Shown one piece after another: positions 45,001-51,000 of a stretch of 64,000 nt of DNA. Location of the stretch: contig CBDCMT010000001.1 of the NCBI GenBank assembly GCA_965219095.1, positions 1,312,001-1,376,000 on the forward strand, given 5' to 3'. The stretch's first letter is position 1. Every line of letters begins with the position of its first letter. Origin of the DNA: Bdellovibrionales bacterium (lineage in GTDB: Bacteria; Bdellovibrionota; Bdellovibrionia; Bdellovibrionales; UBA1609). A program made the position numbers.

Positions 45001-48000
45001 AGTAATTTCTCTAATTTTTCCTGCTACATAAGGGGGATTATGGTTTATGAAGTCATCTCGAACTTGAAATTTCCTTTAATTTTTCTCACTTTTTACTTTT
45101 TTCTTTTTCTCATTGATTTTAGGCCTTAGAGATTTAAACAAAAACCCATTCCTATACTAGACATTTTTAAACCAAAAGAATAAAACCTCACCCTTTCATG
45201 CCCCCAAAACGCTTTCTTAAAATCCTTAACAAAATGAGAAAGAGCTTCTTCTTCAAAACCCTTTCTTAAGAGTCCTTGAAGGGGGCTTTTGTAAAACAAG
45301 ACCTACTAAGACCTGCAAAGATAAGAAGAAGGCTTCAACAACTTTTGTCACTATATGTCATTCTCTTTTAGACTAGACAAAGCCTCTTAATTTACTTATC
45401 TTAATGCAGAGTAAAACTAAGTGCAAGGAGTGTGAAGTTGTAAGAGGTCAAAAAGAGTTTTTGTTTAAAAGCCACCTCTTACTGAAAAGATTTTTATGAA
45501 ACAGAAAACCCATAGTGGGGCCAAAAAACGTTTTAAGGCTTTATCTAAAGGCAAGATCAAGAGAAAACAGGCAGGAAAGAGGCATTTACTTTCTCCTCAC
45601 TCATCAAAGAACAAAAGGCAACTAGGTCTTACAAAATATGTCCATCCCACAAATAAAAAAGCCATCAAAGCTCAGTTGGTTATATAAGGAGTTTGTTATG
45701 AGAGTGAAAAGAGGGGTTGTTGCCAGACGAAGACGTAAGAAAATTTTAAAAAGAGCTAAAGGTTATTATTCAGCAGGTAGCCGGTGTTTTATTACAGCTA
45801 TAGAAAGATCTGATAGAGCTTTGGCTTACGCTTATCGTGATCGTCGTCAAAGACGTAGAGAGTTTAGAAAACTTTGGATTCAGAGAATTAACGCAGCCAC
45901 TAGACAAAATGGCACTAATTATTCGCTCTTTATGGGTGCTTTAGCTAAGTCAAAGGTGTGTCTTAATCGGAAAACATTAGCTGATTTAGCAGTTCATGAT
46001 AAGACAGCTTTCAGTATCTTAGTACAACAAGTCACTTCAACCTCTTAAAACTTAAATAAAATGCTTGATTTGAAAGGTTTTTCTAAGCTCAATCGTAAAG
46101 AAAGATTTAAAAAGCTCATTGAAATAGGGGCTTTAACTTTAGAAGATGTTAAGTATTTACAAACCTCTAGCGGTTTGGATTTAAACTTAGCTGAACATTT
46201 CATTGAAAATGTTATTGGCTATTTCCACTTGCCTTTAGGTGTGGCTACGCACTTGGTGATTGACAAGAAAAAGTACACCGTCCCTATGGCCGTTGAAGAG
46301 ACTTCTATTATCGCAGCTTTAAGTAAAACAGCTAAATGGCTTGTTAAACAAAAAGCAGAGATCACAACAGAGGTCATAGGTCATAACCATATAGGACAGG
46401 TTCAAATTTCTGAAGTGAAAAACTTTAAAAAACTTTCAAATTTTTTAAAACAACAGGGAACAAACCTCATTGAAGACGTTAATAAAAAAATAGCTTATGG
46501 ACTTGTTCGTAGAGGCGGAGGAGTGAAGCAACTCTCTTTAAGAAAGATTCAACGTTCTGACAAAAAAACTATGGCTGTTGTTCATGTGGAGGTGAACACC
46601 TGCGATGCTATGGGAGCTAACATCATCAACCAAATTGTAGAGTATCTAAAACGTCCCTTAGAAGATGCTACTGGTGAAACTGTAAGTATGTGCATTTTAT
46701 CTAATCTTGTGGATACAAAAGTCACAAAAGCTTATGTAAAAATCGATCATCTTCCCGGAGCTTTTTGTAAAAAAATTGAAGAGGCAAGTCTCTTTGCAGA
46801 ACATGATCCTTATCGTGCTACAACTCACAATAAAGGGGTACTCAACGGTATTGATCCTCTCCTCATTGCTACAGGAAACGACTGGCGTGCTGTAGAGGCA
46901 GGAATCCATGCCTATGCCACACGCAAGGGCGGTTATCAACCTATTACTATATGGAGAAAAAAATCCACAAGTCTTTTAGGAACATTTCAAGCTCCTGTGA
47001 TTGTTGCTACTGTAGGAGGGGTTACGCATCTTCACCCTACAGCACAAATTAGTTTAAAAATGCTGGGAGTAAAGACATCTTGTGAGCTTTCAAGAGTTTG
47101 TGCTGCTGTAGGCTTAGTACAAAATTTAGGAGCCCTACATGCTCTTGTCACAAAAGGCATTATTGAAGGTCATATGAAGCTTCATATTAAAAATTTGATT
47201 TTAGGTGCAGGTGCAAAGAATGAAGAGATTCATGACTTAGAAAATAAATTGGAAAAAATTTTAATGTTTCATAAGAAAGTTTCTTTAAAGGATGCTGTAG
47301 AAGCTTTAAAAGATATGAGAAGAGAGCAGGATTGTTTAAATTAAAGACAAATCCAGCAAAATCTTTTTCAGTACCTAGTAAAACCTTTATTTTAGGTGAG
47401 TATGCTGTTTTGCTTGGAAAACCTTGCGTATTTGTTAACACACAGCCTCGATTTCAAATGGTTATTAAAGAAGGCTCAGGGCAATTTAAAAACATGGATG
47501 AGCGAGCCTGCTTATGGATTAAAAAGAAAGCCTCTCATTTTAAAAACTTTGACTTTGAGTTTCAAAATGATTGTTTCTCAGGAGGCTTAGGGGCTTCTAG
47601 TGCTCAATTTCTCATACTTCACCAGTGGATGAAAAAAACAAAGGCTCAAGAACTTTTAGAAGACTATAAAACACAAACAACACAAGATCACAGATCAAAA
47701 TTTTCCCCTAGTGGAGCCGACCTTATGGCTCAGTTCTCAGGGGGTTTAGGTGTTTACAGGCCTAAGCCTTTTAGTTTAGAAACACTAGGCTGGCCTTTTA
47801 AAGAGTATAGTTTTATGATTCTTAGAACCTCTTATAAAATAAACACCTATGAACATTTACAAAATTTAAAAGTCTTGTCCTCTTGTTTCTCAAATAACCT
47901 CTCCGTTCTTATAGAGAAATCCATTGAGGGTTTTAAAAAGGAAGACATTTTTTTATTTTGTGAATCTTTGAAGCAATTTTATAAAAACCTTCTTTTAGAG

Positions 48001-51000
48001 GGTTTAGTTTGTGAAATGACAGAGGCTTTAATCGAAGAATTTCAAAGAAGCTGTCTTTTTTTAGCTTCAAAAGGCTGTGGAGCCTTAGGAGCGGATACTG
48101 TTTTTTGTGTTTTCCGAAAGGAAAAAGCTAAGGATGTGAAAGAGTGGTTAAGAAAAAAAGATTTAAGATTTATAGCCTCTGAAGAACATATTTCAGAAGG
48201 CTTAAAAGAGTTATGAGAAAAGTCTTTCGAGTACAAGCACCTTCTAACGTAGCTCTTATTAAATACATGGGGAAAAAAGATTTCTCTTTGAATATACCTT
48301 ATAACTCATCCCTATCCTACACTCTTGAAAACTTTTTTACTTGTGTTGAAATTACAGAGTCTCAAAAAAATCAAGATCACTGGAAACCTCTTAAGAAAAA
48401 GGGGCTTTATCCTATAAGCCTTTCTCAAACAGCCCAAAAAAGATTTCTTAAACACTTTCAATTTTTAAAAGAACATTTAGGGATTAAAGGGGTTTTTACT
48501 GTTTCTTCAGCTAACAACTTTCCCTCTGACTGTGGTTTAGCAAGTTCTGCTTCTAGCTTTGCAGCTCTCACAGCTTGTGTTAATGAAATGTTAGAAAAAA
48601 AACTTGATCCTCTTAAGTTAGCACGTCTGAGTCAAAGAAGTTCAGGTTCATCATGCCGTTCTTTTTTTTCTCCTTGGGTTCTTTGGCAAGAAAAGAGTAT
48701 AAAACCTTTGAACCTACCTGAATTAGAACACAGTCTTATCTTAGTGAATTCTCAAAAAAAGCACATTTCATCTTCTCAAGCTCACAGAAGGGTTTTGACA
48801 AGCCCTTTCTATCCACAAAGAGTTGATAGCACTCAAAAAAGAATTCAAAAGCTCATAGAGTGTTTAAAAAAACACCTCTGGCAAGAGGCTTTTCATATTT
48901 GCTGGGATGAATTTGAAGACATGCATCAGCTTTTTGAGACCAGCTACCCTGCTTTTTCCTATAAAACTTCAAAAACTAGGGCCATTTTAAAAGAGATTAA
49001 AAAAAGATGGAATCAATTAAAAGATGGGCCTCTTGTCACCATGGACGCAGGCCCCAATATCCACCTTTTGTGGAGAAAAAACTCACCCCACAAAGACTCT
49101 TTTTATTTTAAACCATAACCTGTCAGATTAAGTCACAACTATTACAATTAAGTCGATACAAAAGAAAACTTCACAGAAGAAGAAGTTCAGTTGAGGCAAT
49201 CATTGGTCATATGAAAATAGATTCTCGTATGGGAAGAAACTTTCTATTAACCCGAGTTTCGATTTTTATATAGTGCTTCCGTTTAGGTTTTCCTACAGAC
49301 AGCCGTCTTTATTACAAAGCTTTGAAGACTTTAGTTCACAGGGCTAAAAAAGAGGGTTTAGTTTTACGTCAAAGCTATAAAAGAAAGGCCAAGGAGTGTT
49401 TGTTTAAGAGTAACTGCTCACTCTCGTAAGTTTTTATTTAAAGCCATCTCTATGGCTTTAAATAAAAACTTAAAGGGGTGAGCAGTTACAAATCGATGTG
49501 GAATCAATAAATGATATGCCGGTGGTTTTACTCATAAGGCTTGTCGAGAAAAGAAACATCAAAAAAGCCATGTCTTTTTTGATGTTCACAAATCGGGAGT
49601 AAGACAACATTTTAGGAAAATAAGATTTAAGATAGACTTCTGCAAACTGATAAAAGGCTTTAAAATTCCTAAAGCCAGAACTTTGGAAAAGCAAGATAGA
49701 GAGTGATAATTTCGCTGGGAGATAAGCAGAAGAAAAACCTCCTTTATTTTTGGCAAACCAGTTCTGGATGCTGCTGTATGAGAGGAGTTAAAATCATCGA
49801 CAAGAACATAAATTGATATGATATAATTAGAATTAAACATCTTAGACCTCCTTGTATGTTTTTTTAGGCTCCTCCCGGGAATCTGTGGGTGAAAAGTAGT
49901 AGAAATCCCCCAAAAGAGCTCATATTAATCAAAGTAAGAGTAAGACATTCTATCTTGTATTTTTGAGTTCTTTGAGGCCCTTACTGGCCTCTATCACCTC
50001 CGGTGATTGAACTCAAAAACATTCATTTTATTTGCTTTTATTTGCTGTATTACATTAAAATTTTAAAAAAGAAGCACCTACTTCCCAGATGCCTTAAAAT
50101 GTTATTCAAAAAAAAAAAAAAAAGGAGGGAAGAGATGCTTTTGAAGACTATACTAAATGATTGTTTAAGATGGAAGTCTTTTGTATACGGAGACATTTAT
50201 TTTTCAAAAGATAGAAAGTCAATTAATGTTCCTATTAAGGCTCGTAAAAATGGCCAAGCTTTTTGTAGTGTTTGTAAGAAGCCCTGTTCAGTGTATGACA
50301 GCAGTAAATCATCACGGGACTTTGAATCCCTTCCTATTTTAAGTTACAGGGTGTTTTTTGTTTATTTTGTAAGAAGAGTTAATTGTTCTTGCTGTGGAGT
50401 AAAAGTTGAGTATTTACCTTGGGCAGATGGGAAGAAAAACCTAACAATTTTTTACATGAAGTACTTAGCTGACTGGTGTCGTCACCTGTCTTGGAAAGAG
50501 GTTTCTTGTAAGTTTCATGTCAGTTGGAATCAGGTCTATGCTTTGGTAGAATGGGTCGTAGAATATGGTTTAAAACAAAGGGTTTTAAAGGGAATACAAG
50601 CTATAGGTGTAGATGAAATACAATGGAAAAAGAACCATCAGTATCTCACCTTAGTCTATGAAATAAGCAAAGAAAGTGTTCGTTTGCTATGGATAGGAGA
50701 AAAAAGAACAGAAAAGAGTTTTAGAAAATTCTTTGATTTACTAGGAGAGAAGTCAAAAGATATACAGTTTGTGTGTTCTGATATGTGGAAGCCCTATTTA
50801 AAAGTAATAAAGGAAAGGGCAAGTCAAGCTTTGAATATATTAGATCGGTTTCATATCGTAGCAAGACTCAATAAGGCTTTAGATGAAGTGAGAGCTTCAG
50901 AACACAAAAAAATGAAAGAAGACGGGTATGAACCCCTTTTAACAAAAGCTAGATGGCCCTTGTTAAAAAATGCAGAAAATTTAAAATCTTATGAAAAAGT

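Follow-up and report, generated by a model that had tools for sequence, protein, structure and literature searches.

We found that, in a 64,000-nucleotide stretch of a Bdellovibrionales genome (the window), three adjoining genes very probably encode the lower steps of a mevalonate pathway that is biosynthetic and draws its HMG-CoA from leucine breakdown and not from acetyl-CoA. What we observed directly is gene content, the failure of searches to find HMG-CoA synthase (HMGS) or DXR, gene linkage and a pattern in published essentiality tables; from these we infer that leucine flows into isoprenoids and that this genome behaves like Bdellovibrio bacteriovorus. The survey's finding was that isoprenoids must start from leucine. 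A leucine route is supported by transposon sequencing (Tn-seq), by Pseudomonas putida, by Coxiella and by linkage, and the word 'must' has to be read as an inference.

The operon and the search for a synthase

The gene run, all on the plus strand, opens with a short reading frame at 45496-45687 that, from its translation and its position ahead of rplT, we take to be rpmI (ribosomal protein L35), given for context only. It is followed by rplT (ribosomal protein L20; 45638-46048; PF00453, E 2.8e-41), which probably has its real start near 45698 and ends 12 bases upstream of hmgR; in the B. bacteriovorus rows of Data Set S3, L20 (RS04250) also stands ahead of idi-hmgR. The hmgR gene (46061-47344) encodes a class II HMG-CoA reductase (HMGR; TIGR00532, 325.5 bits against a cut-off of 259.95), and mvaD (48213-49118) a diphosphomevalonate decarboxylase (MVD; TIGR01240, 172.8 bits against 171.35, with PF22700 and PF18376). 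Between them, the product of 47332-48216 had no Pfam, NCBIfam or PDB match as a single sequence. A profile of 24 sequences matched mevalonate kinase 1kkh (3.6e-26) and phosphomevalonate kinase 1k47 (3e-8) in PDB, indicating that the protein is a divergent GHMP kinase; a homologue (L148) scores above the PF08544 cut-off. The reading frames of hmgR, the kinase and mvaD overlap in turn by 13 and 4 bases; together with the model matches they bear out the operon of HMGR, GHMP kinase and MVD at 46061-49118 that the survey described. A promoter and terminator scan was uninformative (7 promoter-like sites, 9.8 expected).

Mevalonate kinase and type 2 IDI had been placed outside the operon, where we located a mevalonate-kinase-like gene near C2:2168143 (TIGR00549, 114 bits, under the cut-off of 163) and IDI-2 at C2:800173 (TIGR02151, above cut-off). 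The two GHMP kinases fit the mevalonate kinase and phosphomevalonate kinase steps, and by elimination the operon kinase is most likely the phosphomevalonate kinase, the steps and specificity being assigned from sequence.

In Pseudomonas that feed on mevalonate, HMGR runs in the degradative direction. An alternative for the present genome would be that mevalonate or later precursors are imported from prey, host or medium and that HMGR acts degradatively together with HMG-CoA lyase. The NCBIfam label of TIGR00532 is indeed 'degradative', the best PDB match of the window HMGR is 1qax, and a lyase is present. However, PDB alignments revealed an arginine ahead of the GGG turn (YGLVRRGGG), as in 5wpj and unlike 1qax (DQLLNSLGGG), which is shared by nearly all sampled relatives; furthermore, the gene is coupled to a kinase and a decarboxylase, not to the lyase. 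The arginine presumably marks an NADPH-type enzyme such as 5wpj. The window HMGR is predicted from this motif to be biosynthetic and of NADPH type, and, with the Tn-seq data described below, we consider precursor import very unlikely.

HMGS was not found in this genome (94% complete) with PF01154 or PF08540, by tblastn with HMGS proteins of the order (best E 1.0), with the archaeal model TIGR00748 (best 27.8 bits, FabH) or with our own seven-sequence HMM over 22,667 six-frame ORFs (best 28 bits, FabH), in agreement with the survey. Furthermore, the thiolase fold was found in just four proteins of the genome (FabH, FabF, AtoB and FadI), and, of 11 FabH-like proteins checked, 10 carry HQA, the FabH motif, and none GTE[ST], the HMGS motif. 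These results argue against a second alternative, that a non-homologous HMGS, or a moonlighting FabH or thiolase, uses acetoacetyl-CoA, with the apparent essentiality of the liu genes reflecting only toxic intermediates or products needed elsewhere. The MEP pathway was also not found, its absence having been claimed: DXR gave no match in the genome, none of the four PF00288 matches is annotated as IspE (they are MVD, two MVK-like proteins and one HddA-like protein), and motifs of Dxs, IspF, IspG and IspH, a weak test, matched nothing in it.

Leucine genes in the genome and its relatives

An IVD-like gene lies at C1:373637-374818; its top five PDB matches are all isovaleryl-CoA dehydrogenases (IVDs; 277-296 bits, against at most 242 for others), and it carries an EIGGGT motif. 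A liu operon at C2:627330-632407 contains the beta chain of methylcrotonyl-CoA carboxylase (MCC-beta), a hydratase, biotin carboxylase (BC), BCCP and HMG-CoA lyase. MCC-beta scored 659 bits with human MCC, 651 with MCC 3u9r, 433 with geranyl-CoA carboxylase and 262 with PCC 1vrg, and its gene is adjoined by those of BC and BCCP. Three top matches bear generic or PCC names. From its position between the MCC subunits, a crotonase whose best models, PRK07468 and PRK05674, both score below cut-off is a putative LiuC-type methylglutaconyl-CoA hydratase. Also present are an E1-alpha/E1-beta pair (a BCKDH candidate that by sequence could be another E1), ETF-alpha and ETF-beta, and an AtoB-like acetoacetyl-CoA thiolase (TIGR01930, above cut-off) in one operon with scoAB. 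BCKDH E2 and, by motif search, ETF-QO were not located in the genome, and LeuA is absent from it.

In the route that we propose, leucine would be taken up from outside, as there is no LeuA, and converted to 2-oxoisocaproate by LeuDH or an aminotransferase, to isovaleryl-CoA by BCKDH, to 3-methylcrotonyl-CoA by IVD with ETF, to 3-methylglutaconyl-CoA by MCC with ATP and bicarbonate, and to HMG-CoA by the LiuC-type hydratase. The route would branch at HMG-CoA, a share of which HMGR would divert towards mevalonate and IPP, while the lyase, together with ScoAB/AtoB, would burn the remainder. By established enzyme chemistry, MVD removes the very carbon that MCC adds, so that every isoprene unit would retain leucine C2-C5 and C5' in one piece. 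Isovaleryl-CoA of any origin would feed in at the same point as leucine.

To follow these genes, we used 151 genomes of the order, 151 of the phylum and 40 of Legionellales. In the order, HMGS exceeded its cut-off in four genomes (three true, one PksG-like; 3 of 121 in the survey), and DXR, earlier 0 of 121, proved near-absent, with one marginal match of 21.5 bits. HMGR, whose share had been put at 85%, occurs in 148 genomes (98%), MCC-beta in 147 (earlier 120 of 121) and the lyase, also said to be retained, in 142. Retention of MCC throughout the order is weak evidence alone, since the lyase, encoded in the same operon, is nearly as widely retained. Lyase retention was rejected as a discriminator on the same counts.

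The synthase-free pathway holds across the order, as the survey had it, and extends well beyond. In the phylum, HMGR (102 genomes) and DXR (49) were exactly complementary, and HMGS was found in one genome. This search, made with PF01154 at 1e-5, failed to recover methanogen HMGS among its controls, so that absence of the archaeal type is covered only by 21 genomes, where the best score was 59.8 bits and the cut-off 353, and by the order search (E 0.01). Proteobacterial-type MCC-beta was detected at 1e-110 in 91 of the 102 HMGR genomes versus 13 of the 49 DXR genomes (10 at orthologue level), a contrast that is only suggestive because the Bacillus-type carboxyltransferase of family f15 scores below this threshold and DXR families may hold such an enzyme.

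Each of the other 11 HMGR genomes has one other carboxyltransferase. It lies within a lyase-hydratase-carboxyltransferase operon in the four f15 genomes examined (4/4), and in the one genome of family f16 its neighbour is a hydratase; one enzyme of this type shares 62% identity with a Bacillus protein from a cluster of the same gene order. As counter-examples to the leucine route, f15 and f16 are largely resolved by this gene context, which covers 5 of the 11 genomes; their BC and IVD were not located. A membrane protein of f15, considered as a mevalonate transporter, had no Pfam match and was rejected, its Atlas lead being a CPBP/Rce1-like protease. One genome of the window's family, G137 (1.2 Mb, 95% complete, 50 contigs), has retained IVD and the mevalonate operon, whereas the queries used found neither MCC-beta nor the liu hydratase, the lyase or HMGS in it, which would favour a hidden synthase. 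It is the sole 1.2-Mb genome of this family in the sample.

In Legionellales, HMGS was found in 3 of 40 genomes and MCC-beta in all 40, and a GHMP kinase homologue follows hmgR in 79 of 80 loci. An HMGR tree of 36 rows (12 of these 80 loci, one Legionella plasmid record, and loci of the order and phylum) gave f15 and Legionellales as one starred clade each and placed the window row without support. One row sits on a very long branch, and the tree supports no direction of transfer.

Gene linkage also joins the two pathways. In five phylum genomes (G217, G181, G187, G238 and G232; four of the loci fetched in sequence), hmgR lies head-to-head with the MCC-beta gene, and in G217 the two starts are about 53 bases apart and all liu and mevalonate genes form one cluster. 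Toxicity of liu intermediates would leave this linkage unexplained. The five genomes represent three families and may reflect one or two events.

Published essentiality data

The B. bacteriovorus Tn-seq tables (supplement of PMC6561027) hold six samples, prey-free growth included. HMGR, MVD, IDI-2, BCKDH E1 (RS14690) and ETF-alpha have no insertion sites in the six samples, and the MCC biotin carboxylase has one. IVD, the hydratase, ETF-beta, ETF-QO, the second BCKDH subunit and the gene between HMGR and MVD are marked ND, a label for which we found no definition and which accounts for 7 of 55 rows in the single block counted, around IVD. IVD and the hydratase are ND yet missing from the essential list of Data Set S3, as is rpoA; MCC-beta and BCCP are not ND and have noisy values, like L17 and FabH. 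Values are present for three other acyl-CoA dehydrogenases, FadB, two other thiolases, LeuDH and BCAT. HMG-CoA lyase mutants were recoverable (W 0.40-0.54, SD 0.12-0.16) and impaired on prey, which, together with retention of the lyase in the order, indicates that leucine catabolism is real. With the lyase gene at the end of its operon, polarity cannot account for the essentiality pattern.

These data bear on a third alternative, in which the lyase runs in reverse, from acetoacetate and acetyl-CoA to HMG-CoA, and stands in for the synthase. Its wide retention would fit, and acetoacetate could come from ScoAB and AtoB, but lyase mutants could be recovered, their fitness values being tight, and the equilibrium favours cleavage; we find the idea scarcely credible. 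The absence of HMGR insertions in prey-free growth, with the lyase recoverable, also argues against a degradative HMGR. As to precursor uptake, E. coli, a MEP-only prey on which growth was reported (PMC6561027), had DXR and no HMGR in our controls.

A hidden synthase finds some support here: atoB and scoA are insertion-poor or noisy, as would also be expected from a concealed acetoacetyl-CoA route, and Data Set S3 contains many essential hypothetical proteins. BCKDH and ETF could serve branched fatty acids or respiration, and in peptone medium a block at IVD or MCC could have toxic effects and so mimic essentiality. However, according to 10.1101/2020.07.04.188060, P. putida survives deletion of the operon from IVD to HMG-CoA, and its lyase gene mvaB is without fitness data, 'likely because it is essential'. 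This pattern is the mirror image of that in B. bacteriovorus, and we regard a hidden synthase as unlikely.

The leucine route is also supported by the Coxiella essential list (PMC9997736 supplement), which contains CBU_0607-0610, MCC-beta and methylglutaconyl-CoA hydratase and in which a name search found no row for HMGS or HMG-CoA lyase; CBU_0973, 0974 and 0977 are not on it. The depth of this screen is low (>10,000 mutants, with 512 genes called), and there seems to be a shift between its coordinate columns and the names. In the published Bdellovibrio model iCH457, the HMGS reaction has an empty gene field and confidence 1; the leucine route would replace it.

Collectively, it is likely that a synthase-free, leucine-primed pathway is the sole isoprenoid source in about two thirds of the phylum genomes sampled (HMGR in 102 of 151, HMGS in 1), in most Legionellales and probably in Coxiella. 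Leucine catabolism would then be essential and biosynthetic, quinone tails and undecaprenol would derive from scavenged leucine, the link of mevalonate to predatory or intracellular life would reflect an amino-acid diet and not stolen acetoacetyl-CoA, and the GHMP kinase after hmgR would be the missing phosphomevalonate kinase. If true, a pathway that textbooks treat as catabolic becomes essential for biosynthesis, and whole orders are misclassified by pathway-completeness rules that require HMGS.

Comparison with known systems

Haloarchaeal lipids are reportedly labelled from leucine, and haloarchaea keep HMGS. Myxococcus xanthus mvaS mutants are reportedly viable through leucine. According to PMC9636800, HMG-CoA at the MvaS/LiuC junction of M. 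xanthus is common to the liu and mevalonate pathways; this bacterium keeps the synthase and can also run the junction backwards, and the mevalonate pathway is described as having its own synthase and hence as independent of branched-chain amino acid breakdown. The Liu pathway of Pseudomonas shares IVD, MCC, lyase, acetoacetate CoA-transferase and, presumably, the hydratase with the present genome but is purely catabolic, with the reversed essentiality (10.1101/2020.07.04.188060).

The leucine-to-sterol route of Leishmania and Trypanosoma takes the same five steps from leucine to HMG-CoA and then HMGR (PMC5993337). With thiolase and HMGS present in T. brucei as well, leucine is one of several sources there; in this bacterium, where no synthase was found, the route would be obligatory. 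Leucine-to-isoprenoid flux is thus already known as an optional route in trypanosomatids, and no statement of an obligatory, synthase-free version in these bacteria was found in the literature searched, which left most subscription journals outside. The explanation that predators feed prey acetoacetyl-CoA into the pathway, cited second-hand from PMC4451040, would be overturned, in line with the survey, for this phylum only.

The canonical bacterial mevalonate pathway shares class II HMGR, two GHMP kinases, MVD, IDI-2 and the lack of DXR with this genome but has HMGS (PMC13001223 and PMC6107057). The survey had met no mention of the missing synthase, but the gap is already in print for Legionella, as a question: HmgS is missing in most species and PmvK in all, according to the 2026 review (PMC13001223), which mentions neither leucine nor Bdellovibrio. 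Legionella has the order idi2-hmgR-GHMP kinase, with an HMGR 57% identical, and the kinase that follows hmgR is a candidate for the PmvK that it lacks. The leucine route would offer a testable explanation of isoprenoid synthesis in Legionella in the absence of HmgS and PmvK.

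Mevalonate and leucine genes of the source genome

The survey's finding described an operon of HMG-CoA reductase (HMGR, hmgR), a GHMP kinase and diphosphomevalonate decarboxylase (MVD, mvd), and we indeed observed three overlapping frames at 46061-49118, downstream of rpmI-rplT. The first is a class II HMGR (TIGR00532, above cut-off), whose cofactor loop YGLVRRGGG agrees in alignment with 5wpj (YPSIVKRGGG), unlike 1qax (DQLLNSLGGG); we take the Arg in this loop as a sign of NADPH-using biosynthetic enzymes. The second frame alone had no match in Pfam, NCBIfam or PDB searches, and a profile of 24 homologues matched mevalonate kinases and phosphomevalonate kinases. 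The third is MVD. The window also carries an ISL3-family transposase (50003-51382) and, on the minus strand (53296-56109), a 937-aa thiamine-diphosphate enzyme (PF00456) that is probably an AceE-type pyruvate dehydrogenase E1.

Elsewhere in the genome (3.11 Mb, two contigs, 94% complete) we found type 2 IDI (IDI-2, idi-2) and a mevalonate-kinase-like gene, both away from the operon as the survey had stated. The genome is IS-rich: idi-2 and the isovaleryl-CoA dehydrogenase gene (IVD) are flanked by IS elements away from the operon, whereas relatives retain idi-2 there. An inverted, truncated 174-aa duplicate of the mevalonate-kinase-like gene (C2:2171426-2171947; L024:11427-11948) lies among IS elements 2.4 kb from the full copy, with 132/174 positions identical.

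In the source genome DXR was not found and none of four GHMP matches was IspE, consistent with the claimed absence of the MEP pathway. HMG-CoA synthase (HMGS), also said to be missing, was not found there by two Pfam models, tblastn with real synthases or an archaeal model, nor by an HMM built for this analysis among 22,667 six-frame ORFs; the thiolase-fold proteins found were FabH, FabF, AtoB and FadI only. We consider a synthase hidden from these searches unlikely.

The genome also encodes a leucine route, with ETF, IVD, a LeuDH-like protein and a putative BCKDH E1 pair, together with a single (liu) operon of methylcrotonyl-CoA carboxylase (MCC) beta chain, putative hydratase, BC, BCCP and HMG-CoA lyase. 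Since this lyase is the sole HMGL-like protein, the genome has no LeuA. The only other PF01039 carboxyltransferase belongs to a PCC-type CT-BC-BCCP set (C2:1450054-1453619; L198:3055-6620), which probably serves as acetyl-CoA carboxylase because the corresponding B. bacteriovorus genes (RS11575, RS11580) appear in the S3 essential list (PMC6561027).

Leucine as the probable source of HMG-CoA

We think it very likely that HMG-CoA for the mevalonate pathway comes from leucine breakdown. Leucine would be deaminated, decarboxylated, dehydrogenated, carboxylated and hydrated to HMG-CoA, of which part would pass through HMGR to mevalonate and IPP and the remainder would be burned by the lyase. By established enzyme chemistry, the bicarbonate carbon that MCC adds would end up as mevalonate C1, which the MVD step removes, and IPP would therefore be leucine minus its carboxyl. 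If so, uniformly labelled leucine should give M+5 per isoprene unit, and acetate none.

Published B. bacteriovorus Tn-seq tables (Duncan et al. 2019, PMC6561027; all 276 rows of Data Set S3 and selected rows of the 3,646 loci of S2) bear on this reading. The library was grown prey-free in peptone-yeast extract. Its tables share with the source genome the gene order rplT-(idi)-hmgR-unknown-mvd, and the orders of the five-gene liu operon and of atoB-scoA-scoB are identical; from these agreements we infer that the source genome belongs to Bdellovibrionales. There were zero insertion sites in HMGR, MVD, IDI-2, one BCKDH E1 subunit and ETF-alpha, and one across six samples in the MCC biotin carboxylase. 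IVD, hydratase, ETF-beta, ETF-QO and the second E1 subunit are entered as ND, against a background of 7/55 rows in the block surrounding IVD; IVD and hydratase are missing from the S3 list. MCC-beta and BCCP have noisy values instead of ND, as do L17 and FabH, and atoB and scoA are also noisy. The lyase, final gene of its operon, has tight values (0.40-0.54), and values are present for other acyl-CoA dehydrogenases, FadB, two thiolases, LeuDH and BCAT. Thus the steps as far as HMG-CoA appear to be needed and the step past it not; were leucine fuel only, the lyase ought to matter equally. In S2, 'Hydroxymethylglutaryl' occurs twice, for lyase and reductase. With zero insertion sites in HMGR, uptake of mevalonate is highly improbable, and we give scarcely any credence to the lyase, whose gene tolerated them, making HMG-CoA in reverse. 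This Tn-seq evidence is already published, though not read as support for a leucine route.

The P. putida essentiality pattern is, in the data covered, the opposite (10.1101/2020.07.04.188060). The Coxiella essential list, which we used by names only because coordinates look displaced relative to names, has MCC-beta and hydratase alongside four mevalonate genes; that screen is shallow, CBU_0973, 0974 and 0977 are not on the list, and the paper's text is silent on leucine and HMG (PMC9997736). Against leucine as the source stand the noisy MCC-beta, BCCP, atoB and scoA values and the lack of S3 entries for IVD and hydratase; further, BCKDH and ETF have other essential purposes, toxic blocked intermediates could lie behind apparent essentiality, and there is a 1.2-Mb family genome, G137, without a detected liu operon.

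Distribution across order, phylum and Legionellales

Among 151 order genomes, HMGR was found in 148, MCC-beta in 147 and lyase in 142; DXR had one, marginal, match. HMGS exceeded the cut-off in four, comprising three true synthases and a PksG-like gene adjoining two crotonases. The order-wide rarity of HMGS and DXR and the retention of MCC-beta and, as a caveat, of lyase had thus been described correctly; HMGR presence also held, its 85% figure did not. The true synthases all belong to family f5, and the two with surroundings fetched (G017, G027) lie apart from the mevalonate operon. Each of these two stands alone behind a CheR-like frame. All three genomes (L036 G017, L040 G036, L042 G027) have a second, stand-alone hmgR and retain MCC-beta and lyase despite HMGS. 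The four genomes without MCC-beta are two with only fragments on small contigs, one that is 71% complete, and G137, where the liu operon was not found and idi-hmgR-kinase-mvd and IVD are retained; a single assembly gap would explain this.

At L054:8021-15187 (G003), an 808-aa HMGR fused with a phosphotransferase-like domain precedes genes for a PEP-utilising enzyme and an AMP-binding/carrier protein, possibly a secondary-metabolite cluster. In G092, G096, G176, G182, G183 and G195, too, there are HMGR frames 780-890 residues long.

A set of 151 genomes, each at least 90% complete, represented the phylum. HMGR (102) and DXR (49) never co-occurred and together covered all genomes; HMGS was found in one, at a threshold that misses methanogen-type synthases. 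MCC-beta of proteobacterial type was present in 91 of the 102 HMGR genomes. The other 11 at first resembled counter-examples; each carries one other carboxyltransferase. In 4/4 family f15 genomes fetched, this gene is part of a lyase-hydratase-carboxyltransferase operon, and in the single f16 genome it adjoins hydratase. The protein shares 62% identity with one from Bacillus whose cluster, presumably the yng leucine cluster, has the same gene order. Between mvd and mvk, the f15 loci L152-L156, L158 and L159 encode a conserved membrane protein (~190-240 aa), which had no Pfam match and an Atlas lead of CPBP/Rce1-like, with high confidence.

By coordinate comparison, five of the 102 HMGR genomes (f24, f28, f30) have hmgR next to MCC-beta in head-to-head orientation, as confirmed in the four loci fetched; these linkages may have arisen independently only once or twice. 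A single 11-kb cluster in G217 unites the liu operon with hmgR, kinase, mvd, mvk and idi-2, and its divergent hmgR and MCC-beta starts are ~53 bases apart. This cluster includes a polyprenyl synthetase (L148:12243-13214).

In 40 Legionellales genomes chosen out of 80 HMGR loci, we found HMGS in 3 and MCC-beta in all 40. Two of the HMGS genes (L146, L147; G274, G305) adjoin hmgR, one of them also mevalonate kinase, and are possibly a separately acquired complete cluster. Collectively, the feature is real and phylum-wide, and the leucine mechanism is well supported yet unproven.

Comparison with known pathways

The literature searched, which excludes most subscription journals, contained no statement of an obligatory leucine route. 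A 2026 review reports most Legionella to be without HmgS and calls for further work, mentioning neither leucine nor Bdellovibrio (PMC13001223); 'leucine', 'Bdellovibrio' and 'Legionella' do not occur in Hoshino and Gaucher 2018 (PMC6107057). The iCH457 model enters HMG-CoA synthase without a gene and predicts leucine auxotrophy, with mevalonate unmentioned in its text. According to a 2022 paper, the mevalonate pathway, having its own synthase, is independent of branched-chain amino acids (PMC9636800). In trypanosomatids, according to the passages covered, leucine feeds sterols and HMGS is retained as well, whereas in the source genome HMGS was not found (PMC5993337). Compared with the canonical mevalonate pathway, the system of the source genome departs at HMGS and would function alike from HMG-CoA onward.
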